A stretch of 57,429 nucleotides of DNA. It comes from a virus. Taxonomy: Duplodnaviria; Caudoviricetes. Both the position numbers and the translations under genes were made by a program. Location: IMG/VR virus record IMGVR_UViG_3300023184_000150, positions 1 to 57,429 of that record; one strand, 5' to 3'. The notes under the pieces are model-generated. The model saw nothing but the letters and a program-made list of their open reading frames with translations, searched no databases and was not told where the DNA came from. Below are positions 25,301 to 54,880 of this stretch, in pieces; positions within the stretch are counted from its first letter, which is position 1, and every line of letters begins with the position of its first letter.

Positions 25301-28300
25301 GCTGAAATTTTAACAGAAATTGATGACGACGGTAAAGTAATAAATCTAACAATTTCAAATTCTGGAGATGGATTTGCTTCAGCACCGACATTAATTGTTC
25401 GTCCTCAAACTATTATTGTTGAAATAAATTCAGAATATGGTAATAGATGGACTAAACATCAATATGATTATAATTCATTATCATGGGTAAGAATTAAAAA
25501 TCAAACATATAATACTCCGTTATATTGGGAATATGTTGATTGGAGTAGTGAATCATTTAATTCTTTTAAAGCATACTCATATGTATTAGATGGAGTATAT
25601 GAATTAGATTCTGCTAAAAATTTACTTCCAGGTGCATATGTAAAAGTTAATAATGTAGTTGAGGGAAATTACATTATTCTTGAAAGAATGTCTAACAATA
25701 TAATAGGTAATTTTTCTGAAAATTATGATATTGTATTTGTAAAAAATGGAACAATACAAATTTTAGATACATTATGGAATTATTCTGAATCAAATTATGC
25801 ATATGATATTGCAACATTAGATGAAACGTTGTATGATCAAATTCCAGACTTAGAAGTATTCAATATATTATACGCATTAAAACATGATATTTTTATTAAT
25901 GATTTAAGAGTAAATTGGAATTTATTATTCTTTGTAGCAGTTAAATATGCGCTAACTGAACAGAAATTATTAGATTGGGCATTTAAAACATCTTTTATAA
26001 ACATTACTAATTTTATAGGAACATTAGATCAACGTCCTGTTTATAAATTAGATAATGAACAATATTTTGAAGATTATATTAATGAAGTTAAACCATATCA
26101 TAGTCAAATTAGAAAATACACATCTAATTACGCATATTTAGATAACACTGATGAAAATTCTCCATTAAGTGCAACAGATTTTGATTTGCCACCTTACTAT
26201 AATACTGTAACTGATAAATTTGAAGTTGTAGGATTATCAAATTCACTAATAAATTCTCAACCGTGGAAATCTTGGGCAGATAATTATACTTCTGAAATTG
26301 GTGAAATTGTAGTTTCAAATAACGGAACACTTTATACCCAACGTCCAATAGTACGTGTTACTGGAGGAGGAATCCATGTTACTTCTACAGCCACTGCTGA
26401 AGCTTACATAAGAAATGGCGGAATTTACAAAATAGTTGTAACTAATCCAGGTGCCGGATATACCGAAAATCCTGTAATAACAATCTCCGGTGGCGGCCCA
26501 ATGGTATATAGCACTGCTACTGCATCGGCACGTTTATTAAATTTAAAAACAAGGAAAAATTTAATAGGTATTAAATTTGATAGAGTAAATGCAAACTCCG
26601 AAATAGGAATTACATCAGTAACTGATACATTTACATGTACCGGTGATACTGATAAATTTGTGCTTACATGGTTAGCAGATCCTAATAAAGAAAACATTCT
26701 ACCTACTTTAGATAAGCAATTAATACTATCTACTGATTATACAATTGAGTATTACACTGAAGAATATAATGGATATACAAAAAAATATTCTAGATTTGTA
26801 TTTTTAAATGTTGTACCTTCTGTAAATCAAATATTCAGAATTACATATAATAAAAATATTAATTTATATACTGCGGTTGATAGAATTGAAAATTTATATA
26901 CTTCAACCGCAGTGCTATCAACGTTGATGACAGGAACAGTTTATCCTGGATCAATCATTCAAGGATTACCATTTGATTATTCAGTACCATGGGATACCGT
27001 TCAAGGTAACGGAAATTTTGGAGTTGATAATTCAACATGGAGTGAGCTTGTAAATTATTATACAACTGCAAAATTAATTAGTACTGCTACATTTGGTGCT
27101 TCTACATTATATCTTAACACCACCACGGGTATTGTTCCTGGACAAGTTATTAATATTTTAAACTCATCAACAATTCGTATTAGACCTGATACAATTGTTA
27201 AATCTGTTAATGCTTCTACAAGATCTATAACAATTAGTAAACCGTCATATAGAATAATAAATGCTAGCTCTACTGCTACCGCAGTCGGATCTTCTATAAT
27301 TATCAGAACTACTCCGCCGTTTAATGGAGGTATAGTTAAAGATGATAATGTTATTATTACTGGAATTACTTCTGGCGGTTATAACGGAACTTATAAAGTT
27401 TTTTCTGTACTAGACGCTGATCAATTTTATATTAAATCAACATCGGTATTATCAACAACAAAACCAATTATTAGTTTAATTGCTTCTGCAACTATTGCGA
27501 CTATACTTACTACAATTGATTCTAACAATGTATTAATAGATAGATATGAGGGAATTTATAAATCTGCATCATCTATGATTGTTGTTAATTTAGATACATT
27601 ATATGATGATATAATTAAAATATCTGTATTTTTAGATGAATCTCCTACAGAGTTAGAAACTGGAATTCCTATTGTAGGACCATATCCTGGTGCAGAATAT
27701 TATTATATGGCCAAGGGTAGTAACGGTAAAGCCATTGCATCTTTTTATCATATGTCTTCTCCTAGTTATAGTATTCGACTATTAGTTTATGGTTGTCCTA
27801 CTATTGAATTCTGGAAACCTGATACATTAGTTTCTAAATTAGATACATCTATATCCGGCGGCACCTTAGCAGCAGGAGTATCAGGAGCAATCATTGACGG
27901 GGATGCATTTTTAAATGTAAGAAACGGATACGCTCCTGAAGAATTAGTTGCAGGACATTCTCTTGATAGTGTTGGTATTAATGTATATACAAAAGCAGAT
28001 AGTTCATATGCTACAGTAGTTTCTGGATCGTTTCCTGTTATAGCAGGAGAAATAACAACTGCCACTATAAGCATGAATGCATTTGCAGGATTAATGGTTC
28101 ATTATAATGGCAAAAACTTTAACAGATTGACATCTGCTGACACAAATTCAGGCCCATATTTTAGTAATATAATAGGAACGCCAGTAGGAAGTGGATCATT
28201 AACTCAATTACAAACACCTTTATTGGATGACTATTCTCAAGGACCGTTTAATCTAGGATTTACATGGAATATGTTTGGTGTTAATTATACGGACGTACAT

Positions 28301-31300
28301 GTAGGAACAAACGGATATTTAACATTTGGCGGCGGTTCTGATTTATGGACTCCATTAACAATAAATGCGCTTCCGTACCCTGCTATTTTTGTAGAATATT
28401 GCGATCTTTGGCAAAAATATGGAATTATTAATAGTGCACCTTTAGTAAGCGGTGAGCCTCCGGGATTATTTTATAATAATGGAACAATTGGAGATTTTGC
28501 ATTTTGGAGATTACGTTTTCAAGGATCACATTACATTTATAGAAACAATCCATTAGCTATGCCTACATTTAATTATGAAGTTACATTATATACTAATGGA
28601 GCAGATCAATATATTGAAATAATATATGAGAATGTATGGAAAGGAACAAATGTTAACGGAGACGTTGGATTTGTAGCCGGTGTTGCAAGTGCTAATGGAA
28701 ATTCTAATATTAATATACCTTATACTTCTATCGATAATGAGTCTAGTCATGTATTTTATAGTACTTCCAACGGCGGTAATTGGCAGTATGCAGGTAAAGG
28801 TAAATTTAACGCTTTTAGAAATCCTTTTGCATTTACTACTTCTACTCAATATTATACATTAGGTGATACTATATATCTAGCACCTCAAACAGTATCAGGT
28901 CGTGCAGGATATACAGCAATAGACGTCGGCGGGTCTAGATCTGTAATTGATAGCAATATGATTTTAGTTAGTAATACAAATTCTGCTATAGTAGAAAGTC
29001 TTGCAATTATTGATGATATTCGTAGTGTGTATGTTCTTGTAGATGGAATTGAAAGATCTGATTATATTTTAACTTCTGTAGGAAATAATAATAATAGGGC
29101 TTGCGTCAAAGTTAATAATCTTAGTTCAATTCCTCATACAATAACTGCTTGGTTCTTTGAATCTAAATACACAACCTTTAACAGGGTAAATGAAGAGTTT
29201 ATTACAGTTGGTAGTACTTCAACTTCGGTATTTATTTTATCTACAATACCGGGAGTAATTGAACCAGTAAGTGAAGAAGTAATTATTGAATTGGGTCAAT
29301 TTTCTACACCTTCAATAAGAAAACGATTATTGCCTCCTAAAACAAGTTATTACAAAGTTAGAAGTAATCAACGAGTATTTGATATTGATAATCAATCCCA
29401 GCATCCACAAAATACATACAATGATGAATTGGTAAAAGTTTATGCAAATGGCGTAGAACTTAGACATGGGTTTGATTACACCGTTGATGTTATATTCAGC
29501 ACCATAACACTAGCAGATGGTTTGTTGCATGATGGCGATGTGTTGGCTATAGTTGCATTAAACAATCAAGATTTTATTATTACTGATAATATATTAAAAT
29601 TAACTAACTCCGTAAATAGCGGCACAACTTTAAAAATTACCTCTTTCACTGATCATGATAACATGTTGCTTAGAACTGAGAGATTTAAAGGAAACGGTAC
29701 TGGGAAATTTAAATTGGCATTCCCTGTAATATACGATAGTTATGTCTGGGTATATCAAAATGGCATTCCACTTACTTCTAAATATGATTTTGAAATTTTA
29801 GATAATTCAACAACCATTCAAATTAATAGTCAAATTATTGTTAAAACAACAGACGATATATTAATAACAACAGTAAATCCACCCTCATATGGTAGTCAAA
29901 TTTTAGGGTATAGAGTTTTTAATGACATGTTTAATAGACAACATTTTAAACGTATGTCTACTTTTTATAGCACAACATTATCTAGAAATTTAGCATTTGA
30001 CGATACTGAAATTTATGTAACTGATGCCACTAAATTAATTCCTCCAAATCCATTAACTAATAAACCGGGTGTTGTATTAATTGATGGAGAGCGTATAGAA
30101 TTTATGGTTAAAGATGGAAATGTACTACGACAATTAAGAAGAAGCACATTAGGTACCGGACCAGCAAATATTTCAATTCCGGGCACTACTGTAATAGATC
30201 AAAGTCTTCAACAAACAATTCCATACAATGAAACTATATCTGTACAAACAACTTCTACAATTGCCTCAACTTATATAATCAATACATTGAGTAATCTTGT
30301 TACAGGAGATGGTATAACATTAACCTCTGGAATAGATGCAATACATCAACTTAGTATATATTATGGTGGAAGAGAACTTAGAAAACAATCTTTAACAGTA
30401 CATGATAATACCAAAGCATACGATACAACTTCTACAAGTATATTAATATTACCTCCGGAATTTACAATAACAACTTCTACACAGTTATTAACGTTAAATG
30501 TATTAGATCAACTTAGTATTGATACTAACATAACAATAGTTCAAAAGAAAGGATATGTTTGGTCAGGTACTGAAACATTATTAACTAGTGATGTAATAGA
30601 AGCACATTTCTTAAGAGAAAAAGAAGCAGCATTGCCTGATATATACTATTACGGCGGATTACAGAATTTAACAATAATTGCAGGATCCATCACTGGTGAA
30701 ATTCAAGCCGGTAATCCATTTTTTACTGCTTTTGATATAATATTATCTTTTGGAGGACCTGCAATTTATGTAGGTATAGGTCCTAGACTACCAAAAAATG
30801 GAATAGCAACAACCCTTAATAATAAAATATATTACAAACCTCAACCATCTTGGGAAGGTGTTGATATTTTTGATTATTATATAGTAGACAAGTTTGGTAA
30901 TAAATCTTATGCTCCTGTAACTATATCTACATGGAGACTGCTAGTACAACCGATTACCATAGATGTACCTTATGAAGCTATAGATTTTCCAATAGCCTTT
31001 AATGTAGTTAGAGGTGGTCCTATTTCATATGTAGTTCTTGATCAGAACAACGATCGAATAGGAAATCGAGGCCGCTGGGAGGTTAAAAATGATGGACAAT
31101 TATATTTCACCGCCACTCCTAAATATATATCTGTAGCAGATTTAATTTATATTGGATATACTGCATTTACTATATATGATAGTTTCTCATATTCATATAT
31201 TCTTGTTAGAGTATTACCGCCGGTAGTTCTGACAGCAGGCCCACTTGAAATATATGTTGTAACAAGTAGTACAAATTTCCAATTAGAAGCCTCTGTAATA

Positions 31301-35532: not shown

Positions 35533-36819
35533 ATGGCATATATTTTAAACAAAACAAATGGGTCAATAATTGCTACAGTGCAAGATGCCACTATCGATTT
35601 ATCTACTGATTTAATATTTCTTGGCAGAAATTATGCCGGCTATGGTGAGCCTCAAAATGAAAATTTTATTAGATTATTGGAAAATTTTGCAAATTCAACT
35701 CCGCCATCTAAACCAATTGAAGGTGAAATTTGGTATGACTCATCAAATAAAAGAATAAATTTTTATGATTCAAAAGAATGGAAAAGTGTTTCAAATTTAG
35801 TAGTTAGTGAAACTGATCCGTTCAATATTTCTAATCCACCTCCAATTGGTAATCTATGGTATAATTCTTTAGAAGATCAATTGTTTGCATCTAATGGAGA
35901 CGAATATATATTAATTGGACCTCCTACTGGAGCTGATACTCAGGCAGGTTGGAGAGGTTCATTTGAACAAGATCTCAATAGTACAGGTATAAACATTTAC
36001 AATATTAAAGCGATAATTGGTTCAGATGTTGTTGCAGTAGTTTCCAATCAAGAATATACTGTATATTCCGCACCATTTCCTGCAAGTCCTAAATATCCTA
36101 TATATAATGGTGAAAATGTTCCTAGGCTACACAAGGGCATTAATTTAATAGGAGCAAATGCAACTACTGGAGTATCTGCATACGTTAATTCATCAAATGT
36201 ATATAGTAGTGGTACTGTATTATGGGGAACTGCTGCTCATGCTATATCTGCAAATTCTGCAACTTCATCGGCTGGGTTTATATATGGAGAATATGCTTTA
36301 AATGCATATAAACCCATTTCTTTTTTAAATACATCTACTGGTAATAAAGCAACTGTTAATATAAATCATGGCTTTACCTACAATCCTTTTACTAACTATG
36401 TAAAAGCAACTAGGTTTGAAGGTACTGCTACTAGTGCGTTTTATGCAGATTTGGCAGAAAGATATGCAGCAGATGCAATTTATGAACCAGGCACGGTTTT
36501 AATTATAGGTGGTGAAAAAGAAGTTACAACAACTGCAATTTATGCTGATACAAGGGTAGCGGGCATAGTAAGTAAAAACCCAGCCTATATGATGAATTCC
36601 GAGGCCGGAACCGACGAAACTCACCCTTATATTGCCTTAAAAGGTCGCGTTCCTTGCAAAGTTTCAGGTCCTGTAATTAAAGGTGATCTACTAGTAACAA
36701 GCGGCACTCCGGGATATGCTCAAGTATGGTCTTCTCGAGCTCCTGAAGGATCTGTAATAGCAAAGGCCCTCGAAAATAATCTCGAAGGCCTTGGTATTAT
36801 TGAGGTACTAGTAGTTTAA
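35533..36819 (+). CDS. Tail fibre-like protein with C-terminal intramolecular chaperone (peptidase G2-like)
   Basis: Same N-terminal module; YADLAERY..D..YEPGTVL.IGG, GIVSKNPAYMMN, LKGRVPCKV.GP..KGDLLV. Confidence 0.7.
   Translation: MAYILNKTNGSIIATVQDATIDLSTDLIFLGRNYAGYGEPQNENFIRLLENFANSTPPSKPIEGEIWYDSSNKRINFYDSKEWKSVSNLVVSETDPFNISNPPPIGNLWYNSLEDQLFASNGDEYILIGPPTGADTQAGWRGSFEQDLNSTGINIYNIKAIIGSDVVAVVSNQEYTVYSAPFPASPKYPIYNGENVPRLHKGINLIGANATTGVSAYVNSSNVYSSGTVLWGTAAHAISANSATSSAGFIYGEYALNAYKPISFLNTSTGNKATVNINHGFTYNPFTNYVKATRFEGTATSAFYADLAERYAADAIYEPGTVLIIGGEKEVTTTAIYADTRVAGIVSKNPAYMMNSEAGTDETHPYIALKGRVPCKVSGPVIKGDLLVTSGTPGYAQVWSSRAPEGSVIAKALENNLEGLGIIEVLVV
36760..36792 (-). terminator. Putative intrinsic terminator for the minus-strand transcript, embedded in the convergent fibre gene
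   Basis: 11-bp stem 36763-36773/36782-36792; its single mismatch is a G.U pair only on the minus strand; short U tract. Confidence 0.45.
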
Positions 36820-37697
36820 ACTGCCATTGATGCTTTAATGGATGCATGGAAATTGTATCCAATTAATTTAACGTCTTCCATAGTAAATTTAGTTATATCG
36901 GTAATATCTGTATTAAGCTCTATTGTAGGTAATACTAATGGTACTCTACTCAATTGTTCTCTAACTTGCTCCAAGTGATTATCATATATGTGTGCATCAC
37001 CAAATGAAATAATCAATTCACCTACTGTAAGGCTGCACACTTGTGCAACCATATGTATCAATAATGCGTAACTTGCAATGTTAAAAGGCACCCCGAGAAA
37101 CATATCAGCACTACGCTGATACATATGGCAACTTAACTTACCACTACTACTTACATAAAATTGTGCCATCATGTGACAAGGAGGAAGCGCCATTAAATCA
37201 ATTTCACCGGGATTCCATGCACTGATGATATGCCTACGTCCATATGGATCTTTTTTAATACCATTAATCAATGTTTGTAATTGATCAACGTGTTTAACTG
37301 CCATGCGATTAGCGCCAAACACCGGAGCACGCCATGCTCTCCACTGAACTCCGTATATCCTACCAAGGTCTCCTTTGAATCTTGCCTTTGGTTTCCAGTA
37401 ATCTGCATTAGCATTACCAGACCAGATGGTACTTTCTGTACTAGTACGACTACCGTATAGAATCTCTTTTAAGCGATTCTCGTCCCCACTACCTTCAATA
37501 AACCATAGTAGTTCGCTAACAACAGCTTTCCAAGCTAACCGTTTTGTGGTAATAGCTGGAAATCCTTCTTGCAAATTAAACTTTAATTGCAGTCCAAATT
37601 TACTGATAGTACCAACACCTGTTCTATCAGGTCGATGCTCTCCAGTTTCTAAAATATCTGAAAGAGCATCGCGATAGGTGTGTTCGGAATCTGACAT
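36816..37697 (-). CDS. thyA: Thymidylate synthase
   Basis: DRTGVGT, ELLWF, YGVQWR, RRHIISAWN, ALPPCH, YQRSADMFLGVPFNIASY, GDAHIY. Confidence 0.97.
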   Translation of the reverse strand: MSDSEHTYRDALSDILETGEHRPDRTGVGTISKFGLQLKFNLQEGFPAITTKRLAWKAVVSELLWFIEGSGDENRLKEILYGSRTSTESTIWSGNANADYWKPKARFKGDLGRIYGVQWRAWRAPVFGANRMAVKHVDQLQTLINGIKKDPYGRRHIISAWNPGEIDLMALPPCHMMAQFYVSSSGKLSCHMYQRSADMFLGVPFNIASYALLIHMVAQVCSLTVGELIISFGDAHIYDNHLEQVREQLSRVPLVLPTIELNTDITDITKFTMEDVKLIGYNFHASIKASMAV

Positions 37698-44223: not shown

Positions 44224-45078
44224 TTAAGTTCCCCACTCATTTTTAAAGAGTGGTACTTGTAGTCTATCACTATATCGTAGTCCATGTTTCATTGCTAGTA
44301 ATGCTACATTACGATTGTTCATGGCATACACACTTTCAACTCCGCCTACTGGCATTAGATAAACATGTCCTGTAAATCCTGCACTACGATATGCGGCAAT
44401 GGCACACTCGGCATCAGCAAAGTCTTGTTCTGTGGCAATAACAAACTTCAAATATGCTGTGCCATATTCTTCATACTCACATACACGGTCAGGTTTAATA
44501 GCATCTTCCCACGCTTCACCACTGCATGGTAATTTAGCACTTACGCTAAATGTAACGTCTCTATAGAAGTCAATATCATCAGAATGATATTTCCATGTAT
44601 GCAAATATTGTTTAAATTCTTTTGTTAGACGAAATGTACCATTTGTCTCAAATGTAATTTCTTTAAGACCTTTCATCTTAGGATGACTTAGTAAGTCTGG
44701 ATATTGTTTTTGCCAACCTAACAATGGCTCACCCCCAGTAATAACTAGATGCTCATCACGCCATTCACCGTGTGGAAGAATTTCCATAATGCGTTCTATA
44801 ATTGCATCTGTCGTAAGCAATGGACTTAGGTCTTTAAAACGTGGATCCCAACTTGCATAACTATCACATCCTGTGCTAACTAGTGGCAACATTTTATAAT
44901 CTGTATATTTGATTGGATCTATATTATTTGCTTCTTCGCTTAGTTCACCACGTGGCATACCAAACCCTGCACATTTAAAGTTACATCCGAATGTACGTAA
45001 GAAAACAGAAGGAACACCCATATAGCGTCCTTCACCTTGAATTGAATAGAATAGTTCTGCTATTTTGATTTTTGACAT
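44224..45078 (-). CDS. queE: 7-carboxy-7-deazaguanine synthase QueE-like radical SAM enzyme
   Basis: IAELFYSIQGEG, VFLRTFGCNFKC...CDS, VITGGEP, FETNGT, SAKL, LKFVI, YLMP, RLQ. Confidence 0.85.
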   Translation of the reverse strand: MSKIKIAELFYSIQGEGRYMGVPSVFLRTFGCNFKCAGFGMPRGELSEEANNIDPIKYTDYKMLPLVSTGCDSYASWDPRFKDLSPLLTTDAIIERIMEILPHGEWRDEHLVITGGEPLLGWQKQYPDLLSHPKMKGLKEITFETNGTFRLTKEFKQYLHTWKYHSDDIDFYRDVTFSVSAKLPCSGEAWEDAIKPDRVCEYEEYGTAYLKFVIATEQDFADAECAIAAYRSAGFTGHVYLMPVGGVESVYAMNNRNVALLAMKHGLRYSDRLQVPLFKNEWGT

Positions 45079-45140: not shown

Positions 45141-46067
45141 ATGCGAACAGAAATAATATGGAATTTACACGATCATTGTAAATCACAATGCACATACTGC
45201 CCTACTAGATTTTGGGGAGGAGAAACCCCCCATCATATATCTGAATATTTAGAAATTACACAAAAAATAATAGATCATTATACATCGTTGGGTAGAAAAA
45301 TTGATTGGACATTTAACGGCGGCGAACCTTTAGACATGTTTGATTTTCCTATGCTATTAAAATTATGTAAAGAACATGATGGCACAATTAGTTTAAACTC
45401 CAACGGAGGTAGAATGTGGCTTGATTGGTGGGCCATTGAACCACACATTGATAATCTTAATCTTACATATCACTATTGGCAAAAACCTGCACTTATTAAA
45501 TTTATTTTAGATACATTTAAAAATAAGGACAAGCATGTGAATATAAATGTACCAATTCGTCCAGATTATTTTGAAGAAGATATGCAAAGAGCATTAGATG
45601 TAGAAGCCAACCATGAAATAACTGTTGGAAAATCAGTACTATATAACGAAGCAGATACAGCGGCTGGGATGTTTCAATACACCCCTAAACAATTAGCAAT
45701 AATATCAGGAGTTGAGTTTATTGAACCTTCTATCATTACAGAAATAGAAAAAGAAGAAGAAATTAAAAAGATAGAAATTATTCCGTTAGTAATTGAACAG
45801 AAACATTTTAAAACTACTACATTTAAAGAAAGATTTGAAGAAAAACTGGCCGCAAATTTAGGATATACAGGTATGCTATGTAACTCAGGAATTGAATATC
45901 TTAGTATATCTCATAATGGATGGGCAACCGGCAGTAATTGCAATAATAGACCACTAGGCAATATATGGGATGTTAATTTTTTATTACCTAGTAATGCTCA
46001 TACCTGCACAATGATGCATTGCATATCTCCGAGAGATCAACAAATTACTAAATTTAAATCTACTTAA
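45141..46067 (+). CDS. Radical SAM protein with C-terminal twitch/SPASM-like Cys cluster
   Basis: CKSQCTYC (CX3CX2C), FNGGEP, SNG; C-terminal CNSG...SNC...LGNI...CTMMHC. Confidence 0.8.
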   Translation: MRTEIIWNLHDHCKSQCTYCPTRFWGGETPHHISEYLEITQKIIDHYTSLGRKIDWTFNGGEPLDMFDFPMLLKLCKEHDGTISLNSNGGRMWLDWWAIEPHIDNLNLTYHYWQKPALIKFILDTFKNKDKHVNINVPIRPDYFEEDMQRALDVEANHEITVGKSVLYNEADTAAGMFQYTPKQLAIISGVEFIEPSIITEIEKEEEIKKIEIIPLVIEQKHFKTTTFKERFEEKLAANLGYTGMLCNSGIEYLSISHNGWATGSNCNNRPLGNIWDVNFLLPSNAHTCTMMHCISPRDQQITKFKST

Positions 46068-47130
46068 AATTTTCTAGTAATTTATTTGCACTAAAAAAAT
46101 TAGTAGTCAAATCTCTAGTTTGTGCTAATAATTTAGGAAGACGTGTCTCATAGTGATCCATATGCTGACAAATAGCGAAACATAGATTAGGTCTATGATT
46201 CTTATACGCTTCAAAACTTTCAGTCCATTTGCTAGGATATTTAAATGTGTCATAATACATCTCAGTATAACTTAAACGATCGGGAACTAATGGAATAGCA
46301 CCTACTAATGCACCTTCATAACAACTGATGCCAAGTGTTTCTTGTAGATTGGCACTGAACACCATTTTTGCTTCACCTAACAAATTATGATATTCATTCT
46401 TTGTTAGTTCTTGATCTTGACAAACTACAAATTCGTATTGTGGCAACTGTTCTTTTAAATCACGGAAGATCTCGACTTGCTTCTCAGGTGCAATACGATG
46501 CGGGAACAAAATAAGATCACGCTTTTTCATGCCCTTGTATAAGTTTAAAGTATTATCCATATACTCCATCGGCCAACCAGTGCGTACAATTTTACCTTGT
46601 TCGATCATGGACATCTTCCATTCTTCATCTAATGTTTCGCTAAACGTTTTAGCAAACAGGTCAATATGAAAGTCTGTAGCAAAGTAGTTGTGATCGATGG
46701 CGTGGAAGTAACTTTGTTCAGCGTGTCTTACCCAGGGAGCATCACCAATGAGACGTCCTAAAAAGTCTTGAGGGTCATAACTACCAGCATGCCATAATCC
46801 ATGTATAGTTACAGGAATGCCGAGAAGTCTGGCCATGTACTTGAGATTGATGACACCAGGGTGCCAAGCATCAGTAAATACAAAATGATCACCTGGGCGA
46901 ACGGCTCCGTTGCAAAATAGCCGGCCCATCTGCTCAACCTGACTAGCCTTGTATATATTAGTTCCGCCAAAATTAAGAAAAGCACCAGGGGTAGTAGCAG
47001 CAGGGATATCAGTAGGTCCAGAAATAACTTGAACATTGTGTCCAGCCTTTCGTAAGAGATTAGGTACATGGTCTTTCCATTGACCAGTGTACCTTGTCGA
47101 GACTGCTTCAATATCGACTACGTAGATCAT
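46060..47130 (-). CDS. GT-B (GT4-like) glycosyltransferase
   Basis: FPHRIAPEKQ and EX7E motif ETLGISCYE followed by GAIPLVPDRLSYTE. Start moved to MIYVVD at 47130. Confidence 0.8.
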   Translation of the reverse strand: MIYVVDIEAVSTRYTGQWKDHVPNLLRKAGHNVQVISGPTDIPAATTPGAFLNFGGTNIYKASQVEQMGRLFCNGAVRPGDHFVFTDAWHPGVINLKYMARLLGIPVTIHGLWHAGSYDPQDFLGRLIGDAPWVRHAEQSYFHAIDHNYFATDFHIDLFAKTFSETLDEEWKMSMIEQGKIVRTGWPMEYMDNTLNLYKGMKKRDLILFPHRIAPEKQVEIFRDLKEQLPQYEFVVCQDQELTKNEYHNLLGEAKMVFSANLQETLGISCYEGALVGAIPLVPDRLSYTEMYYDTFKYPSKWTESFEAYKNHRPNLCFAICQHMDHYETRLPKLLAQTRDLTTNFFSANKLLENFK

Positions 47131-47131
47131 A

Positions 47132-47368
47132 TCAACGTTGATTGTATGGACGAGGGTTATTCCCCTTGTACTCAGTACGTGGCCTACGTTCTCCACCGTT
47201 ACTCCAACGTTGGAAGTTACGGTATTCTTGACTACGATATAGATCGCCTTCATTAAATGGTAGAAGATTAAACCTGCAATGATCTAACCAAGCCTCAAGA
47301 TCATCAAAGATCTTAGATACTTCTGGTTTCATTTTAAGAGTTTTTTGAATGTAAGCGGGTTGCGCCAT
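47132..47368 (-). CDS. Hypothetical phage protein
   Basis: 78-aa ORF with AGGA RBS; fills the gap before the glycosyltransferase. Confidence 0.7.
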   Translation of the reverse strand: MAQPAYIQKTLKMKPEVSKIFDDLEAWLDHCRFNLLPFNEGDLYRSQEYRNFQRWSNGGERRPRTEYKGNNPRPYNQR

Positions 47369-47384: not shown

Positions 47385-47768
47385 TTAAAGGGAGTTGTTG
47401 AAAAGAAGTGAAGCGCCGTTTTCGCCGTCTTCACTTACATCGATAATGGTCTTACGACCGGGGTACCTTGTAGTAATTGTCGTGTTAAGATCACGAGCAA
47501 TCATTTCACAAGATTTGTGGTTGAGTTCAAGAATGCCATCATTGTAGCACTTCTCAAGCCAACGCTTAAACTGAATAAATTCAATATCGCGGTCATCTTG
47601 AAAGACCTCAATAAAAACTTTAAAGTGGAAAATATGTCGATGTGGTGTTCCAAGGAAACTAACATCATATTCATCGCCTGTGGCCAACTTAGGATCAGTT
47701 GCGGCTGCGGGATACATATGGATACCTTCTTTACGGAAGGTAACCCAAATCATTGATTGATCGTTCAT
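47385..47768 (-). CDS. QueD-like (6-pyruvoyl-tetrahydropterin synthase / T-fold) protein
   Basis: EGIH, HRHIFHF His cluster, DRDIEFI..K, SCEMIA, VSEDGENG fit the T-fold pattern; context of queE and tgt. Confidence 0.6.
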   Translation of the reverse strand: MNDQSMIWVTFRKEGIHMYPAAATDPKLATGDEYDVSFLGTPHRHIFHFKVFIEVFQDDRDIEFIQFKRWLEKCYNDGILELNHKSCEMIARDLNTTITTRYPGRKTIIDVSEDGENGASLLFNNSL

Positions 47769-47947
47769 TCTGATGTTTTCTTAGCTACAGTTTTTAGAGG
47801 TTTAGGAGTCTTAGTCTTTTCAGGAAGATTATCTTTCATCATATTCATCATTTCCCAAAGTTTCCAATCCATGCTTTCAAGCAATTTGAATAGACGTTCT
47901 TCTGTAGTTTCTTGTTTTGCTTGTTTAGTTAGCTTTGCATTAATCAT
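47765..47947 (-). CDS. Hypothetical small protein
   Basis: 60-aa ORF with GAGG RBS and ATGA overlaps. Confidence 0.55.
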   Translation of the reverse strand: MINAKLTKQAKQETTEERLFKLLESMDWKLWEMMNMMKDNLPEKTKTPKPLKTVAKKTSE

Positions 47948-48456
47948 TTTATTACCTCATCGTTTTTGTATTGATTCCAGTCTGTAAATTTACTACGATC
48001 CATAAGTGTATGCAGACTGTGGGACCATACACCGGGATTAGTTGCTTTAAAATCTTTATCATCAATTTTAATCATTGTGTTGTAATTCCACAATTTAATA
48101 TAAGGAAGTGGTATACGAATTTGTGGAATAAAATTGTTAAATTCATTACAACCGTTTTCTAGAAATTCTTCTGCTAAGTTGATTGGAATATCAAGACTGC
48201 ATATATATTCTTTTTTTAGAAAGAACTCAATCATTGAGTCCCAACTTCTCCACTCATCATAGTTTGTGGGATTAAAACTATGATTAGCACCAAAGAAGAT
48301 ATGCTCCGCACCATTTAAGTTTTTAGCAATATCTTCAAAAGATTGAAGACCTGTAACAAATAATGTTTTCATTCCAAATGCAGGAGTATGCTCAACCTCT
48401 GTTCCAATAAAAAATTGAGCAGTATCTGATTCGCCAGTTATATAATTACGTTTCAT
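47944..48456 (-). CDS. Hypothetical protein in the deazaguanine cluster
   Basis: 170 aa with motif-like segments FFIGTEVEHTP, HIFFGANHSF, KIDD.DF..TNPGVW. Confidence 0.7.
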   Translation of the reverse strand: MKRNYITGESDTAQFFIGTEVEHTPAFGMKTLFVTGLQSFEDIAKNLNGAEHIFFGANHSFNPTNYDEWRSWDSMIEFFLKKEYICSLDIPINLAEEFLENGCNEFNNFIPQIRIPLPYIKLWNYNTMIKIDDKDFKATNPGVWSHSLHTLMDRSKFTDWNQYKNDEVIK

Positions 48457-48495: not shown

Positions 48496-50040
48496 TTATT
48501 CAGCCAATCTGTTTTCAAGTGCTCTATATTTTGGATCTTCAACATCTTCTGTATCTACTTCTAATGAAGTTGTAATATTTTCAATTTCAAACAAATTGTT
48601 AAATGTGTTTTGAGCAGGACCACCTTGCATTCTAGAACCTTCGAGACTTCTTAAGAAATTTAATCCTTCTTCGATCATTTTAAATGCTTCTACTTTTGAT
48701 TTAGTGTTAAACAATTCTTCAACAAATCGATCAAAGTAAAGAATATTACGTGGTACCCAATCGCTATATTGATCACCTGCAATATCTTTAGAACTAAGTT
48801 TATTCCAATGTCTCCAGTCTGGTTTAAATCTAGTAGTTTCAATATCTGCTAACTGATTAGCACGTTGTACAGCAACAATGTGGCATTCAACATTATGACC
48901 CATCATTAGGGCATAAGCAAAACTATCCCATGATGTTTTACCTTCTTTCTTAATCTTGTTCAACATGCCAGGAGCATAGTGACAAATATCGCCCATTGTT
49001 AATCTGCGACCGAATTCGCTTTCGAATGGGAATGGTATGTCTGATTCTGCAAGTGCTTTGTTGTCTGGGGCTTTGTCCATAATAACACTCCACCTTTTTG
49101 TGGTGTGTTGTGCATTGGTATAGACAAGTCCGTGCGCTGTTGCGATAAACGGTGAGGCGCAGTCAAAAGATACGGTAAAGTTTTCATTGATATGTTTTCT
49201 GATTTGTCGTTGTATTGAAGTCAAATATACAGCCCAATCTAATTGTGCTGTGCCTAGGAAGTGCATCCAGTCTTTACCATTAAGCAAACCTTCGTCTCTA
49301 AGAGTCATTAGTCGCTTTAAAGTAATATCCATCTTGCACATATTAGCGCCACCCATGGCCCAACCTTCTGCGGCTTTATCGCCCCATACTGCTGGATCGC
49401 TAAATTCTTTTACTCCATTATACCACTTCTCAGCAGTATCCCAATCGTTACCTTGGAGAACATTTAAAAACTTTGTAAGTCCTTGCCTATTATCTAGGAA
49501 GAACTTGTTGTTATATTTTGTTTTATTTAAACAGTCATCGAATGTTTTCAAGCCAGTCTTAGGACTGTGAATATGATCACATGCCCAAGTAGGAACGTCT
49601 AACATCATTGACCAATCGGCGGTTAGTTCAAGCCAATCTAAAATTTGTTTTCGAGTTTTAGTTGCGGCAGGACCTTCAAAGTTTAACCAATCAAATTTAA
49701 GAACACCTTTACCAATTTGATATCCACCTGAGTCACCTAAGATCATAGTGTTGTTTCGATCTCGTTGTTGTATCATTGATTCTTGAATAACACTTTTATT
49801 AAGATCTAATTGTGCATGACCTGCTGAATACAAACCATATTTGTATGTGAAATATCCATCTTCGGGATTTAAAAAATTCATACCTTCAATACCACGATCA
49901 AATCCTTTAGGAATACGATCATCAGGTATGAATTTTTCTAATCTTTGTTTAGCGATGTATGTACTATAAAAAGAACTAATTGCTGGCAAATATACTGCAT
50001 AGTCTTTTTGTAGTGGTGTTAGATTAAGGTGTCTTTTCAT
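48496..50040 (-). CDS. dpdA: TGT-fold guanine transglycosylase (DpdA2-like)
   Basis: GDSGGYQ catalytic Asp motif, MMLDVP, NVLQG, GWAMGG, HFLG, SFDCASP, HN near the C-terminus; no Cys zinc motif of the bacterial tRNA TGT visible. Confidence 0.8.
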   Translation of the reverse strand: MKRHLNLTPLQKDYAVYLPAISSFYSTYIAKQRLEKFIPDDRIPKGFDRGIEGMNFLNPEDGYFTYKYGLYSAGHAQLDLNKSVIQESMIQQRDRNNTMILGDSGGYQIGKGVLKFDWLNFEGPAATKTRKQILDWLELTADWSMMLDVPTWACDHIHSPKTGLKTFDDCLNKTKYNNKFFLDNRQGLTKFLNVLQGNDWDTAEKWYNGVKEFSDPAVWGDKAAEGWAMGGANMCKMDITLKRLMTLRDEGLLNGKDWMHFLGTAQLDWAVYLTSIQRQIRKHINENFTVSFDCASPFIATAHGLVYTNAQHTTKRWSVIMDKAPDNKALAESDIPFPFESEFGRRLTMGDICHYAPGMLNKIKKEGKTSWDSFAYALMMGHNVECHIVAVQRANQLADIETTRFKPDWRHWNKLSSKDIAGDQYSDWVPRNILYFDRFVEELFNTKSKVEAFKMIEEGLNFLRSLEGSRMQGGPAQNTFNNLFEIENITTSLEVDTEDVEDPKYRALENRLAE

Positions 50041-50043
50041 ATT

Positions 50044-51021
50044 TTATTTAATTTTGTCATACCAGTATTTTAGCATATCAGACAACGTTTGGTCTATATT
50101 AATGGTTGGTTTCCATTTTGTTAAATTAACTAAATCAAAAGAATCACCATGCTGATAATGAATATCAATAGGGCGATAAAAATTAGGATTTATTTCTTGC
50201 TTAACGTCTTTAACTCCACTTATTTCGATTAGTTTAGTTGTAAAATATTGCATTTTTTGTGGTTCATCTCCACACACATTAAAAATATTACCATTTACAT
50301 TTTCGTTAATCATTGAAAGATAGTATGCATTTACTGTATCTCTAACATCAAGGACAACTCTTACACTTTCTAAATTACCAACCTGCAATATAGGTTCTTG
50401 ATATCCTTTCATCATACGGGCAATTTGATATGCATCAGATGAGATTGAAAAATTCTTACCTCTTCTTGGGCCTGTATGAGAAAATGCACGGGTAATAAAA
50501 CCTTTAATTTTACCATTGACCATTCGTTCTTGCATATAAAGGTCAGTTGCTGCTTTTGATGCTCCGTAGGGATTTGAAGGTAAAATTGCATCATTAATTG
50601 TAATTTTACGTCCGTCTATCCCAATATTTCCATATACTTCTGACGTAGAACAAAACATTAATTTACAATCTGGTTGATAATCAGATATAACTTGTATTAA
50701 ATTAGCAGACCCTATAATGTTATCTTCAAAAGTACCAATTGGATCAATAAAACTTGATGGAGGATGCGACTGTGCCGCAAGATGAAATACACCATCGAAT
50801 TTATATTTTTTAAAAATTTGTTCTAAAACACGAAGATTATTTAGATTTGAATATAAAAATTTAATATCTTTATAAACATTATCCGGAACAATGTCTTGTA
50901 TGTCCGTCTCCATACCATTAGTACCTCGTATTAATCCATATACGTTATGTCCATTAGCATGTAATAAGTTTGCAAGATGAGGTCCTGCGAAGCCTGTTAT
51001 ACCTGTAATCAAAAAATTCAT
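50044..51021 (-). CDS. gmd: GDP-mannose 4,6-dehydratase-like extended SDR
   Basis: LITGITGFAG, HLAAQSH..SSF, STSEVYG, PYGASK, RAFSHTGPRR, GNL..VR..LD, YRP.D. Confidence 0.75.
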   Translation of the reverse strand: MNFLITGITGFAGPHLANLLHANGHNVYGLIRGTNGMETDIQDIVPDNVYKDIKFLYSNLNNLRVLEQIFKKYKFDGVFHLAAQSHPPSSFIDPIGTFEDNIIGSANLIQVISDYQPDCKLMFCSTSEVYGNIGIDGRKITINDAILPSNPYGASKAATDLYMQERMVNGKIKGFITRAFSHTGPRRGKNFSISSDAYQIARMMKGYQEPILQVGNLESVRVVLDVRDTVNAYYLSMINENVNGNIFNVCGDEPQKMQYFTTKLIEISGVKDVKQEINPNFYRPIDIHYQHGDSFDLVNLTKWKPTINIDQTLSDMLKYWYDKIK

Positions 51022-51037: not shown

Positions 51038-51421
51038 TTAATTTGTTTCATGTTCTTTGCTTAGTATCTCTGTTATTTTTAATTGTTCTTCAGCGCGGGC
51101 AAGTTCTTTTTTAGCACGATTTATATTTTCTCTAGCAAGTTTAACAGCGGGATTATCGTTGGGCAAGGATATTAGAACTTCTTCCTCTATCTTTTTCTTT
51201 CGTACCCAATCTAATAATCCTAAGGAGTATTCGTCTAATGTGACAGTTGCGTAACTAGATGGCAATGTCTTCCAACTAGTATGGTCAAATACTTGCAAAT
51301 CTGAACCCCATACACGAACCATTCCCTGTATGGGATTTTCATTAGTCATGCTAATGTAAGGTACAGACGTGTCGCCACCTGATACCCTAACACCGACGCC
51401 GCTGGCTAGACCTTTTATCAT
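51038..51421 (-). CDS. Hypothetical phage protein
   Basis: 127-aa ORF; ATGA overlap with the clamp gene. Confidence 0.65.
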   Translation of the reverse strand: MIKGLASGVGVRVSGGDTSVPYISMTNENPIQGMVRVWGSDLQVFDHTSWKTLPSSYATVTLDEYSLGLLDWVRKKKIEEEVLISLPNDNPAVKLARENINRAKKELARAEEQLKITEILSKEHETN

Positions 51422-52152
51422 GCGTTTGCTGGAATAATATATTTGTAAGTAGCCAAGCCGCTATCTAAAGTGATCTGCATAGCACCTTCATTACTAAAAC
51501 TAATTTTAGTATTGTTAGCATCTGCAACTTTCAAAATGCTCAACACACTGGTTACAGGCCATGTCCATGCTTTAGTAATCTTTCCAACAACACCTGTAGC
51601 AAATACAAATTCACCACCGTGACTGCTAACATCGCCGAATGTAAATGTTAATTTGTCGCCTTCTGTTTTAGCCAAGAAAGTTGTATGTTCTGTATTAGCA
51701 CCTGCCTGGAATTGAAAACGTTGAACAGAAGCAAGTGTTGGCTCAACTTCAACATCCCATTTAACACCACGGAATTTAACAGTTTTCAATTTTTCATTGA
51801 TAATGTCTTGATTCATAAAGCGATAATCATTTTTAAAATCGCCGTCTTTGTTTTCAAAGTGAAGACCAACTGGAATAGTTTCGCCATTACGTTCAGCAGT
51901 AACTACTTCAATTTTAGAATCTTCTTGATATTCTTTACCATCTAATAGATAGCGTAGTTTTTCAAGTTGTGGCATACCATATGTACCAATCATATCTGGA
52001 TATGGATTAGCAGTCTCGGCATACATAATAACTGTACGGTCATCTGCCATACTGTCAATTTGTGTTTTTTGATCTGTGCCTGTAATTTTAACAATGTTAA
52101 GAAAGCCTAATTTGTTAGTATGTGCAACAATGTCTTGTAGAATAGATTTCAT
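51418..52152 (-). CDS. Probable sliding clamp (gp45/PCNA-like)
   Basis: 244 aa with alpha/beta repeat pattern and C-terminal YKYIIP; directly downstream of the DNA polymerase. Confidence 0.6.
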   Translation of the reverse strand: MKSILQDIVAHTNKLGFLNIVKITGTDQKTQIDSMADDRTVIMYAETANPYPDMIGTYGMPQLEKLRYLLDGKEYQEDSKIEVVTAERNGETIPVGLHFENKDGDFKNDYRFMNQDIINEKLKTVKFRGVKWDVEVEPTLASVQRFQFQAGANTEHTTFLAKTEGDKLTFTFGDVSSHGGEFVFATGVVGKITKAWTWPVTSVLSILKVADANNTKISFSNEGAMQITLDSGLATYKYIIPANA

Positions 52153-52207: not shown

Positions 52208-54880
52208 TTAATCAAAACTGAATAAAGAATTAAATGTGTTTGTTTCGGTTGTTGATTCTAGATCCCACTCTAGAACTCCAATAAGATTATCAAGTTTGTT
52301 ATTAATAATAGTTGCTTCCATTTCAGCATGATCAAATGGCAAGTCTTGGAACCATTTAGGTAGTCTAAGTTCATCAACCGGATATGCAATACTTGTATAT
52401 CCTAGAGGATTAGCTTTTACCTTGCAAACAATAACTTTCATACCATCGACAATTTGTTGGCTGTATTTGTCACCGTTCATACGTTTAAGAGTATTCCAAT
52501 TGATACTGGCACGGACATGTCCTGGCATATTTGCCTTGCCCGCTTTCTTTTCTTTTTCTTGATACTCAGCAATATTGTTTGCACGTTTCGGACTACCTTT
52601 TTCCCAGCCGGGGCGGGCTTTAAACTCAGTTCGGAATTCAGAAATCATTTCTAAAATTTCATCTTCCTGACTGCCATTTAAAACTTTTGTTAGAACTTCT
52701 TCCAAGAACTTTTGCATAAATTCCGGAGTATCACTACGCTTCAAATCTAAGCCCATGGCTTTGATCTTGCCGGGTTTAGTTTCGCTATCATATCTCTTGC
52801 CATCCTTATCATAGTACAATACAGCATAACGCTTCTTGGTAATGAACAAGCCTTTAATAGCAACGATTTCACGTCCTGCCTTAATAACCTCTCCACGACT
52901 CTTTGGACAGTGGAAAGCATCTAACATGAACTGCGGAAATGTAGCATTAACATTATCTGCAATCGTGTTATACAATTGGATAGCAATATCTTTATCCCAG
53001 GGAATAAGTTTCTTTTGGATATCAATTTTCAATGTATTGTAAGCAGAAAAATAACATGAGTCTGTGTCACCGTAAATAATACTCTTACCAACGTGATCAA
53101 AATCACCTGTGATAACTTCATTAACCTTACCTGCCATATGACGAGCAATAGCACGACCTGTTAGTGTAGTACTTTGTCCAATACGCTTGTCAAAGAATCT
53201 GCAACCTGGATTAAGAATAGCACCATACAAACTATTCAAGTTAATCTTCTTAACCAGTTGTCGTTTGTCCCAATATTCTTCTTCAATCTTATTACCGGCA
53301 TCCATTGCTACTTTAAGTTTCTTCTGCATATCCTTACGCTCACTATACCAGCGAGCCAACAAGCCTGGGATAATACCTTCTTGTTCATAGGTAAAGATTG
53401 TACCATTGGCACTGAGCATCCACGGATTATTACTTTCATAAATTAATCTATAAGCTTCTGCTCCACTTATAATATCATGTTCTCCATTTTCCCAATCAAT
53501 AGTAAGTTCGTATGCACGATCTTGACGCATCACCGCTTCGTATTCTAAACTACCAAACATACCTTCCCATGCGGCAGCAAATGATTTTTTATGTAATGTA
53601 GTTTGCTCGTGAATAAATTCATCGGTATTAGTTTGACGTATTTGCCCAACAATAGTTTCTGGACCCATATTCAATGCTCGAATTACACTTGGATATAGAC
53701 TGTTAATGTCCATACTGCCAATATAGTCATGTAATCCTTTTTTAGGATATGCTACATACGCACCTGCTGCTTGATTGTTTTCTGTTTCGTCACGTTTGGC
53801 ACGACTTGGAACAATTAATCCTCTGTGATGTGCTTCATTAACAATAGCCTGTTCTGTAACGGCAACAGCACCCATTGTGGTTTGTAGCAATACAGTACAT
53901 TCATGTGCCAGTGTATTAGCAAGATCGATAAACTTTAGTTTCTTATCTAGCTTGTCAAGTAGTGCGGTATCCTGTCTATTATATTCAATGAACTTGCGGA
54001 AGTCATTGTTATATAACTGATCCAATGTACCTTCATAAACAGTTTTACTTTCACCTATCTCCATTTCTCCAATGGCATCGAGTCTGTAGGTGTGACGTTC
54101 TTCATAGGTATATTTCCTGTACAATTCGAGACTGTCCAGATGAACGCGACCAATAAGATCATAAGTAATAGCCTGTTTCCCATATTTCTCATATTCTCTT
54201 TTCTTTGGAAATTGATCCCACAAACAGAATCTGCGAGTATCTTCTTTACTTAGTACTTTTGTAACACGATTGACTGTGTAAGGAATATCAAACCCTTCAC
54301 TATTCCACCCACTTAGAATATCAGCATCTTCGATTAGATTTAAAAATGCATCCAACATTTCTGCTTCTGTTTCAAACAATATTGTGTTAGGAAAATCTTT
54401 AACTTGTTCCTGTGCTTGTTCCATGGTTAGTGTTTTAGGTGGAACAGCAAAACAAACTAATGTATCCATCCATTGTAAATGAACCGCAATACTTGTAATT
54501 GGCATGAAAGCATCTTCAGGAGTGCTATAGCCACGTTCTGGATCAAAATCAACTTCAATGTCAAAAAACGCTACATGAAGTTTTGGGGCATCAATACCGA
54601 GATAGTGATCTTCTAAACATCGGAAAGCCGGTTTAATATCACTTTCGTAAAGCCTACGTTCGCCGTGGATACGTAGTTCTTTTTGGAAGTCCTTGTTATT
54701 TCTACAAGATACTTTGCTTAGATTCTCACCGTAGATTGATTTGTACTTACCCTTTTGATCAGGATAATAAAAAATGAACTTGGCAGGATATTCTTGATAA
54801 ATTCTGCCCTTCTTTGCATCGCGCTCAACTACCTTAACGATATCTTTGTCGCGATCCCACCATGCATCAACATATGACAT
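52208..54880 (-). CDS. Family B DNA polymerase (gp43-like) with 3'-5' exonuclease
   Basis: FFDIE, GWNSEGFDIPY, YNRQD, DINSLYPS, KINLNSLYG, YGDTDS, KKRY; no intein seen. Confidence 0.97.
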   Translation of the reverse strand: MSYVDAWWDRDKDIVKVVERDAKKGRIYQEYPAKFIFYYPDQKGKYKSIYGENLSKVSCRNNKDFQKELRIHGERRLYESDIKPAFRCLEDHYLGIDAPKLHVAFFDIEVDFDPERGYSTPEDAFMPITSIAVHLQWMDTLVCFAVPPKTLTMEQAQEQVKDFPNTILFETEAEMLDAFLNLIEDADILSGWNSEGFDIPYTVNRVTKVLSKEDTRRFCLWDQFPKKREYEKYGKQAITYDLIGRVHLDSLELYRKYTYEERHTYRLDAIGEMEIGESKTVYEGTLDQLYNNDFRKFIEYNRQDTALLDKLDKKLKFIDLANTLAHECTVLLQTTMGAVAVTEQAIVNEAHHRGLIVPSRAKRDETENNQAAGAYVAYPKKGLHDYIGSMDINSLYPSVIRALNMGPETIVGQIRQTNTDEFIHEQTTLHKKSFAAAWEGMFGSLEYEAVMRQDRAYELTIDWENGEHDIISGAEAYRLIYESNNPWMLSANGTIFTYEQEGIIPGLLARWYSERKDMQKKLKVAMDAGNKIEEEYWDKRQLVKKINLNSLYGAILNPGCRFFDKRIGQSTTLTGRAIARHMAGKVNEVITGDFDHVGKSIIYGDTDSCYFSAYNTLKIDIQKKLIPWDKDIAIQLYNTIADNVNATFPQFMLDAFHCPKSRGEVIKAGREIVAIKGLFITKKRYAVLYYDKDGKRYDSETKPGKIKAMGLDLKRSDTPEFMQKFLEEVLTKVLNGSQEDEILEMISEFRTEFKARPGWEKGSPKRANNIAEYQEKEKKAGKANMPGHVRASINWNTLKRMNGDKYSQQIVDGMKVIVCKVKANPLGYTSIAYPVDELRLPKWFQDLPFDHAEMEATIINNKLDNLIGVLEWDLESTTETNTFNSLFSFD

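Follow-up and report, generated by a model that had tools for sequence, protein, structure and literature searches.

A phage glycosyltransferase whose predicted donor domain resembles that of queuosine mannosyltransferases lies in a conserved 7-deazaguanine gene module

We analyzed a 57,429-nucleotide stretch of phage DNA (positions 1 to 57,429 of the IMG/VR record IMGVR_UViG_3300023184_000150; hereafter, the window) and a glycosyltransferase gene within it, at 46060..47130 on the minus strand, which encodes 356 amino acids plus a stop codon. The donor half of this protein is specifically related to the QTMAN (GTDC1) family of queuosine mannosyltransferases, and its gene sits in a module with the genes for QueE, DpdL, a protein like tRNA-guanine transglycosylase (TGT), and a conserved protein of 170 amino acids, without QueC. 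We think it reasonably likely that, within this module, the enzyme glycosylates 7-deazaguanine that is destined for phage DNA. In animals, QTMAN transfers mannose from GDP-mannose onto the queuosine of tRNA-Asp. At 57 kb, the window is estimated to cover 16% of the genome of an uncultured virus, so the whole phage should be of jumbo size. It carries T4-like replication and baseplate genes.

The longest open reading frame (ORF) at the locus is 46060-47253 on the minus strand, and position 47130 is a methionine at its residue 42. We take this methionine as the start because alignments with phage homologues set in only at residues 30-43 of the long ORF and because the ORF upstream terminates at 47132. 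The gene bounds in the original prediction, which a model made from the DNA alone, therefore hold, and the peptide that it quoted (...LILFPHRIAPEKQVEIF...TKNEYHNLLGEAKMVFSANLQETLGISCYEGALVGAIPLVPDRLSYTEMY...) is present in the long ORF. The protein is real and widespread: metagenomes contain at least 8,000 close relatives (every scored candidate had E <= 0.001), of which the best 120 are 76-93% identical, and the family forms 1194 clusters at 50% identity and E <= 0.001. An alignment of 50 diverse members is the basis of the family hidden Markov model (HMM) and of the protein model described below. The protein has no above-threshold match in Pfam, PHROGs, NCBIfam, or PADLOC; phmmer against PDB gave merely chance matches to von Willebrand factor (E > 1); in the ESM Atlas, its own viral clusters alone came back; and a scan of species-representative cellular genomes with this single protein found no relative. 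Pfam's Glycos_transf_1 scored 12.8 bits (E = 0.085), which is below its gathering cut-off of 26.4, and it was found at E <= 1 in 38 of the 50 family members (best 2.3e-6).

The AlphaFold model (pLDDT 95.4, pTM 0.92) has the two domains of a GT-B enzyme. Its best match among solved structures is sucrose-phosphate synthase (6kih; Z = 25.6, root-mean-square deviation [rmsd] 3.2, 315 residues aligned), followed by BshA (6n1x) at Z = 24.9; full-length GT4 matches span Z = 20-25.6, the top Foldseek matches are all GT4 or GT5, and the glycosyltransferase of phage HY126 matches at Z = 19.4. A profile search of PDB with the phage family had a putative glucosyltransferase as its sole match (8xsg, 2.9e-4), a similar search with the bacterial QTMAN alignment gave generic GT4 chains only, and neither profile found a solved QTMAN structure. 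The residues that are predicted to bind the donor are R212 and K217 within FPHRIAPEK, the EX7E pair E264 and E272, and PDRLSYTE at 283-290. At least 90% of the 50 family members retain the R212/K217 and E264/E272 pairs. The enzyme is thus modeled as a GT-B/GT4 fold of the retaining type, with two Rossmann-like domains, EX7E, and an Arg/Lys pair for the diphosphate.

Our comparison to QTMAN covers only bacterial proteins, which contain the Pfam family QTMAN_N (PF12038, formerly DUF3524). PF12038 was found in 16 of 401 genomes of one bacterial class (L165-L180; E of 1e-35 to 7e-59), and generic Glycos_transf_1 genes from five of these genomes served as controls. With the phage-family HMM, every one of the 16 QTMAN_N proteins scored between 33.2 and 86.2 bits, and no other ORF (>=200 amino acids, 46 loci, including generic GT4 enzymes) exceeded 9.6 bits. 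The phage protein is thus much nearer to QTMAN/DUF3524 proteins than to generic GT4 enzymes, the opposite of the outcome that the original prediction had named as refuting it. Aligning the two families with hhalign gave a probability of 99.6 (E = 9.5e-25, 290 columns). These scores put the resemblance well outside what chance would give. In comparisons of single sequences, 15 of 15 QTMAN proteins had E of 3e-9 to 5e-19; among 41 control frames, none did better than 9.5e-5. A search in the other direction, with the phage profile against 400 genomes, placed its 17 best matches (E <= 2.5e-6) within the 16 QTMAN_N genomes, and 16 of the 17 were the QTMAN_N gene itself; the remaining 7 places had E of 4.7e-5 to 6.8e-4. 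Finally, in a 67-row tree (which omitted every second row of the phage alignment, L169, and the L180 fragment), a single branch with SH-aLRT of 98 separates 28 generic GT4 enzymes from the phage and QTMAN proteins together.

The likeness to GTDC1/QTMAN that the original prediction had drawn stands for the C-terminal, nucleotide-sugar domain, for which hhalign gave a probability of 99.8 (E = 1.7e-27, 116 columns). The motifs that it had cited do occur in the bacterial QTMAN_N proteins, as WNHRWEYDKNPE.F and STA.HEFQG…EA…G..P..P.RL.YPE. In the alignment, IlWNHRWEyDKnPE.F of QTMAN falls opposite IvFPHRlapEKQPeiF of the phage family, and STA.HEFQGLavlEAv.aGa.PlvPdRL.YPE falls opposite SaalQETlGIs..Ea…GciPlVPDRLSY.Emy. 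In other words, H-R-x-x-x-(E/D)-K, (Q/H)-E-x-x-G…E (EX7E), and P-(D/N)-R-L-x-Y-x-E line up, and the protein in the window has the QTMAN signature (WNHRWEYDKxPE; STAxHEFQG…EA; PxRLxYPE) as the variant FPHRIAPEKQVE; SANLQETLG…YEG; PDRLSYTE. On these comparisons of protein sequences, the donor half of the enzyme is specifically related to the QTMAN family. The link to the eukaryotic enzyme comes through the name of the Pfam family and the automatic names of Atlas clusters: these clusters are named tRNA-queuosine alpha-mannosyltransferase, and one of them combines bacteria and arthropods. As a side observation, the bacterial QTMAN_N proteins are full-length, with about 350-410 amino acids, and the QTMAN_N domain of L172 sits in an open frame of 707 amino acids, which may be a fusion or an upstream read-through.

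The second line of evidence is the genes around the glycosyltransferase. The features that matter for our argument are as follows (NDP, nucleoside diphosphate; SDR, short-chain dehydrogenase/reductase).

44224..45078, minus strand: QueE, 7-carboxy-7-deazaguanine synthase, a radical SAM protein (phrog_2076, 4.7e-50)
45141..46067, plus strand: second radical SAM protein, weakly viperin-like or QueE-like (Pfam Radical_SAM, 8.8e-07)
46060..47130, minus strand: QTMAN-related GT-B glycosyltransferase (from its ORF, homologues, model, and relation to QTMAN)
47132..47368, minus strand: ORF of 78 amino acids directly upstream of the glycosyltransferase (no match in Pfam, PHROGs, or NCBIfam)
47385..47768, minus strand: DpdL-like T-fold protein, a QueD paralogue, 127 amino acids (phrog_17812, 3.3e-32)
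47944..48456, minus strand: conserved protein of 170 amino acids between DpdL and the TGT-like gene (kept in related loci)
48496..50040, minus strand: predicted TGT-superfamily (DpdA-like) protein, 514 amino acids (fold match)
50044..51021, minus strand: NDP-sugar 4,6-dehydratase/epimerase of the SDR type (Pfam GDP_Man_Dehyd 1.2e-57, Epimerase 1e-45)
51418..52152, minus strand: sliding clamp (35% identity, E = 5e-53, to a coding sequence of phage PAC2 annotated as proliferating cell nuclear antigen)
52208..54880, minus strand: family B DNA polymerase, ending in …NTFNSLFSFD (phrog_262, 1.8e-199)

NCBIfam's QueE models match 44224-45078 with E values down to 1.8e-15, although the scores fall short of their cut-offs. 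The DpdL-like protein carries LGTPHRHIF, which fits the LxxxHRHxF signature; this motif defines DpdL, a proposed 7-carboxy-7-deazaguanine decarboxylase (PMC10516641). The TGT-like protein has no sequence match to Pfam (including its TGT family) or to PDB. Its AlphaFold model (pLDDT 63.5) matches solved structures of TGT (Z = 14.7), ArcTGT (14.6), QTRT2 (13.9), and DpdA (12.9), as compared to 11.2 at most for generic TIM barrels, and the best 50 Foldseek matches listed are all TGT. These matches support the TGT-fold gene that the original prediction had placed beside the glycosyltransferase. At E <= 1e-3, tblastn found relatives of the TGT-like protein in PA5oct-like phages, one Vibrio phage, and phage Phosso only; it shares 41% identity with the product of the gene immediately upstream of the glycosyltransferase in PA5oct-like phages.

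We found neither QueC nor FolE in the window, which spans about 16% of the genome, and Phosso, PAC2, and ACP17, whose genomes are complete, have no QueC either. The protein of 170 amino acids has no match in Pfam, PHROGs, NCBIfam, PADLOC, or PDB, and it is weakly similar (27% identity, E = 8e-8) to the gene upstream of dpdA in ACP17. We note that its gene is as constant as those of DpdL and QueE, so it is an unexplained core component of the module. The second radical SAM gene is convergent with the glycosyltransferase gene and overlaps its end by 8 bases. Its product matches NCBIfam's viperin model at 3.7e-06, with a score far short of the cut-off, and PADLOC's pVip at 2.5e-08. It does not belong to the fixed set of module genes, as it is present in 11 of the 80 related loci described below and in 2 of the 16 with full flanks.

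To describe how well the module is conserved, we used 80 related viral loci, 16 of which have full flanks of 8 kb. All 80 are from one lineage, so they are not independent cases. Of the 80, 75 have DpdL, 73 the 78-residue ORF, 68 the 170-residue gene, 63 the TGT-like gene, and 54 QueE; all 16 loci with full flanks carry the four genes for DpdL, the TGT-like protein, QueE, and the 170-residue protein. More distant phages have the module as well. A homologue of the glycosyltransferase occurs with DpdL, a TGT-like gene, and QueE in phage Phosso (whose host is Sinorhizobium), the PA5oct-like phage PAC2 (Pseudomonas), ACP17 (Acidovorax), BUDD (Xanthomonas), and BCSR5 (Burkholderia). The glycosyltransferases of the lineages that bear the module are 26-49% identical, and their DpdL homologues, which are 48-68% identical, adjoin the glycosyltransferase or lie near it in all five of these phages. 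In BUDD, the neighbor of the glycosyltransferase is annotated as queuine tRNA-ribosyltransferase; in ACP17, the glycosyltransferase lies between dpdA and dpdL; and in Phosso, the homologue of the 514-residue TGT-like protein is located elsewhere in the genome.

Xanthomonas phage PhiXhv-12 has a distant homologue of the glycosyltransferase that follows a Gat-QueC fusion and a PIG-L deacetylase. Including this phage, the glycosyltransferase is found in a 7-deazaguanine context in seven lineages, six of them with the DpdL/TGT-like/QueE module (the window among these) and PhiXhv-12 with Gat-QueC. The four genes in PhiXhv-12 (L213, 4669-8755) run from the Gat-QueC fusion, which is annotated as GlmS, through the PIG-L deacetylase and the glycosyltransferase to a GFO/IDH/MocA oxidoreductase. 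Such a row of genes hints at a deazaguanine pathway of the archaeosine type in which the base is decorated with an amino sugar.

The genes nearby point to DNA as the target. In the window, PAC2, Phosso, and ACP17, the module adjoins the polymerase and the clamp, among replication genes. Also, the TGT-like protein has a conserved peptide in its tail, QNTFNNLFE (residues 476-484), and the polymerase has the counterpart NTFNSLF. Among the open frames of at least 60 amino acids in the window (28,327 residues), TFNxLF occurs only twice, at the C terminus of the polymerase and in the TGT-like tail. The pattern common to the two, NTFN(N/S)LF, is a candidate motif for docking to the sliding clamp, and the clamp is likely to be the partner of the TGT-like tail. 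A complex prediction with three copies of the clamp and the TGT-like tail scored 0.60, as compared to 0.00 for the best of 3 controls, which the tool rates as weak support. Of the 157 solved complexes in the tool's calibration, 116 reached the mark, as did 2 of the 215 mismatched pairs; at or below 0.60, there were just 18 of the 157 solved complexes, together with both of the passing mismatches. The pLDDT of the partner was 38-48, and at least 30% of the contacts were common to the runs. The glycosyltransferase itself was considered for a docking peptide and rejected: its conserved C-terminal FFSAxxL sits in a confidently folded terminal helix and differs from the peptide of the polymerase.

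There is also evidence from a cultured relative. Five restriction enzymes fail to cut the DNA of PA5oct, a sign that its G is modified, and PA5oct is restricted by nucleases that sense hypermodified DNA (PMC12191111).

We propose that the pathway would run as follows. QueE would make 7-carboxy-7-deazaguanine (CDG), which DpdL would process; the published proposal is decarboxylation to 7-deazaguanine (DG). The TGT-like enzyme, probably tethered to the clamp, would swap guanine in the phage DNA for the deazaguanine base. With an NDP-sugar as donor, the glycosyltransferase would then glycosylate the deazaguanine, on DNA or before the base is inserted, and the product would be a sugar-bearing purine that may shield the DNA from host nucleases. 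This proposal bears on a published result: when dpdL and dpdA of ACP17 were expressed in E. coli, no 2'-deoxy-7-deazaguanosine (dDG) was formed, and the authors considered that further enzymes might be required (PMC10516641). The glycosyltransferase, whose gene is flanked by dpdA and dpdL in ACP17, is an obvious candidate for the missing enzyme.

A broader claim seems possible to us, although we hold it more tentatively than the glycosylation of 7-deazaguanine itself. It is that several unrelated jumbo and T4-like phages, including PA5oct, bear DNA with sugar-decorated 7-deazaguanine, made by a relative of animal QTMAN; that sugar decoration is an ancient theme common to phage DNA and eukaryotic tRNA; and that the glycosyltransferase is what was missing from the test of dpdL and dpdA.

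Several points weigh against glycosylation of deazaguanine in phage DNA. First, in GT-B enzymes, the N-terminal domain usually houses the acceptor, and here the resemblance to QTMAN that the original prediction had supposed does not extend to QTMAN_N. Aligning the N-terminal domains with hhalign gave a probability of 2 (E = 0.024), and a six-frame search of the window for PF12038 gave 0 matches at E <= 10. When single N-terminal domains were compared to the phage protein, the best E was 0.0086 for QTMAN and 0.018 for generic GT4 enzymes, so the two are not separated. Similarly, the 25 families listed for the 50 members of the phage family do not include QTMAN_N, and the 12 families beyond that list occur in at most one member each. 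Judging by the defining QTMAN_N domain, the phage enzyme is not a member of the QTMAN family, and its acceptor domain appears to have diverged from QTMAN past recognition. Because the likeness of the N-terminal domains is not significant, it does not follow that the two kinds of enzyme recognize a deazaguanine acceptor in common, and the shared C-terminal domain could reflect merely the same type of donor. Second, if DpdL gives plain 7-deazaguanine, the base has no hydroxyl like those on the side chain of queuosine, and the sugar would need a different type of linkage from that in mannosyl-queuosine. Third, the model of the TGT-like protein is of moderate confidence, and the predicted docking of its tail to the clamp is a weak result, which may come from the predictor's memory because complexes of clamps with peptides are well known to it. 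Fourth, FolE, QueD, and QueC may lie in the rest of this phage's genome, of which the window covers about 16%.

A variant of our explanation, with another order of steps, is that the glycosyltransferase acts on the free deazaguanine base or on a nucleotide precursor and that the large TGT-like enzyme inserts the finished base, as eukaryotic TGT does with queuine. Some features of the system fit with this: the TGT-like protein has 514 amino acids, while the matched chains of solved TGT and DpdA structures have 373-413 residues; the N-terminal domain of the glycosyltransferase is unlike that of QTMAN, which acts on tRNA; and the free base is the proposed substrate of DpdL (PMC10516641). Furthermore, HuiG, a GT4-type enzyme, glycosylates a free 7-deazapurine base (bioRxiv 10.64898/2026.04.15.718813). 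Yet other decorations of deazaguanine in phages, such as methylation by DpdM, are proposed to occur on DNA (PMC10516641). We consider this order of steps unlikely, while giving it some weight.

It is quite improbable, in our view, that the TGT-like enzyme and the glycosyltransferase modify tRNA of the host or the phage instead, which would give a glycosylated deazaguanosine at the wobble position, as with animal QTMAN. It is true that the closest cellular relatives of the glycosyltransferase are in a family named for the mannosylation of tRNA-queuosine, that the TGT-like protein has tRNA enzymes as its top matches by fold, and that jumbo phages often encode many tRNAs (PMC13282480). Nevertheless, PA5oct has the same module and its DNA behaves as if G is modified (PMC12191111), and clusters of the DpdL type are tied to dDG in the DNA of phage phiST (PMC10516641). 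The location of the module beside the polymerase and clamp, the recurrence of the polymerase's C-terminal peptide in the TGT-like tail, and the lack of a conserved QTMAN_N domain also argue for DNA rather than tRNA.

The least probable explanation is that this is an ordinary GT4 enzyme in an incidental position, which acts on something other than nucleic acid (a virion protein, the envelope of the host, or a pterin or other small metabolite): its solved structural neighbors are all GT4 enzymes for small molecules or glycans, tetrahydrobiopterin glucosyltransferases are among its matches (5zer at Z = 20.7; 9v0l at a Foldseek E of 2.4e-7), and JGI calls several homologues "glycosyltransferase involved in cell wall biosynthesis", but it is linked to deazaguanine genes in seven lineages whose enzymes are so divergent and in 16 of 16 related loci with full flanks, and it is specifically related to QTMAN and not to the envelope GT4 enzymes of the same genomes.

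As for the sugar in the glycosylation of deazaguanine that we favor, the original prediction had taken a neighboring gene, the SDR gene, to be a GDP-mannose enzyme. We rejected this gene as evidence for GDP-mannose: it is present in 0 of the 80 related loci, even those whose clamp is 99% identical, and so is a poor guide to the donor sugar. It scores under every NCBIfam equivalog cut-off, and its top match is dTDP-glucose dehydratase. The spacing between the clamp and the glycosyltransferase is about 980 bases shorter in one related locus (L007), and the length of the SDR gene explains the difference. So this gene is an insertion between the TGT-like gene and the clamp region that is peculiar to this phage, where it may tailor the donor sugar.

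We also noticed some genes that are outside of the module. A single ORF of 5243 amino acids, at 16331-32062 on the plus strand, lies among baseplate and tail-fibre genes. The thymidylate synthase at 36816-37697 on the minus strand has 80 listed matches (49-67% identity), and these are nearly all from metagenome-assembled genomes of Patescibacteria (the candidate phyla radiation, CPR) or Nanoarchaeota/Woesearchaeota. Some of the matching contigs may be phage contigs that were binned there.

How does this module compare to known systems? Besides the C-terminal domain, the phage family and QTMAN/GTDC1 have in common that both are tied to 7-deazaguanine in nucleic acid. Unlike QTMAN, the phage enzyme has no detectable QTMAN_N, its context is genes for phage DNA replication and modification rather than tRNA, and the phage base is likely DG or CDG, which lack queuosine's cyclopentenediol. 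The alpha- and beta-glucosyltransferases of phage T4 are, like this enzyme, phage GT-B enzymes, and they add a sugar to a modified base that is already in DNA. T4's alpha-glucosyltransferase (1y6f) matches our model at Z = 18.3 (rmsd 4.4, 302 residues), which is below many GT4 enzymes, whose Z reaches 25.6. The match to the T4 enzymes is one of general GT-B fold, with no sequence match in PDB, and T4's base is a pyrimidine, whereas here it would be a purine analogue. To our knowledge, the DNA bases that bear sugars are pyrimidines, for example in T4 and Pbunavirus.

The dDG system of phiST, which is of the DpdL/DpdA3 type (PMC10516641), has QueE, a DpdL with LxxxHRHxF, and an insertase of the TGT superfamily, and it has no QueC. 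The window is similar, with QueE, DpdL, a predicted protein of that superfamily, and no QueC found in the part of the genome that it covers. The phiST system differs in that the module in the window adds the glycosyltransferase (tblastn with this protein gave no match in phiST) and has a TGT-like protein of a longer, divergent type. HuiG, from huimycin biosynthesis, is also a GT-B enzyme, and it adds GlcNAc to a 7-deazapurine from the preQ0 pathway (bioRxiv 10.64898/2026.04.15.718813). We liken it to the phage enzyme by its description and not by sequence: it acts on a free base, in the secondary metabolism of actinomycetes, and its clusters have no dpdA.

The published 7-deazaguanines of DNA that we found carry small substituents (Cui et al. 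2023, PMC10516641). That study used ACP17, and "glycosyl" appears nowhere in its main text. We found no report in the literature of glycosylated 7-deazaguanine in DNA or of a link between QTMAN and phages; the supplements of PMC10516641, which were outside our search, may list clusters of the ACP17 type. This case would join deazaguanine modification of DNA with the glycosylation of DNA bases.

If our explanation is correct, then glycosylated deazapurines would form a class of their own, new among DNA hypermodifications, and the finding would identify the G modification of the PA5oct-like phages, which are being studied for therapy. It would also bear on how phages evade restriction and CRISPR, on nucleases of the type IV and END kinds, which recognize modified DNA, and on the sequencing and cloning of such phages. 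For biochemists, there is a concrete enzyme and there are culturable phages (PA5oct, Phosso, and ACP17) to work with. Finally, the tie to QTMAN offers a testable evolutionary link between the modification of phage DNA and the modification of animal tRNA.

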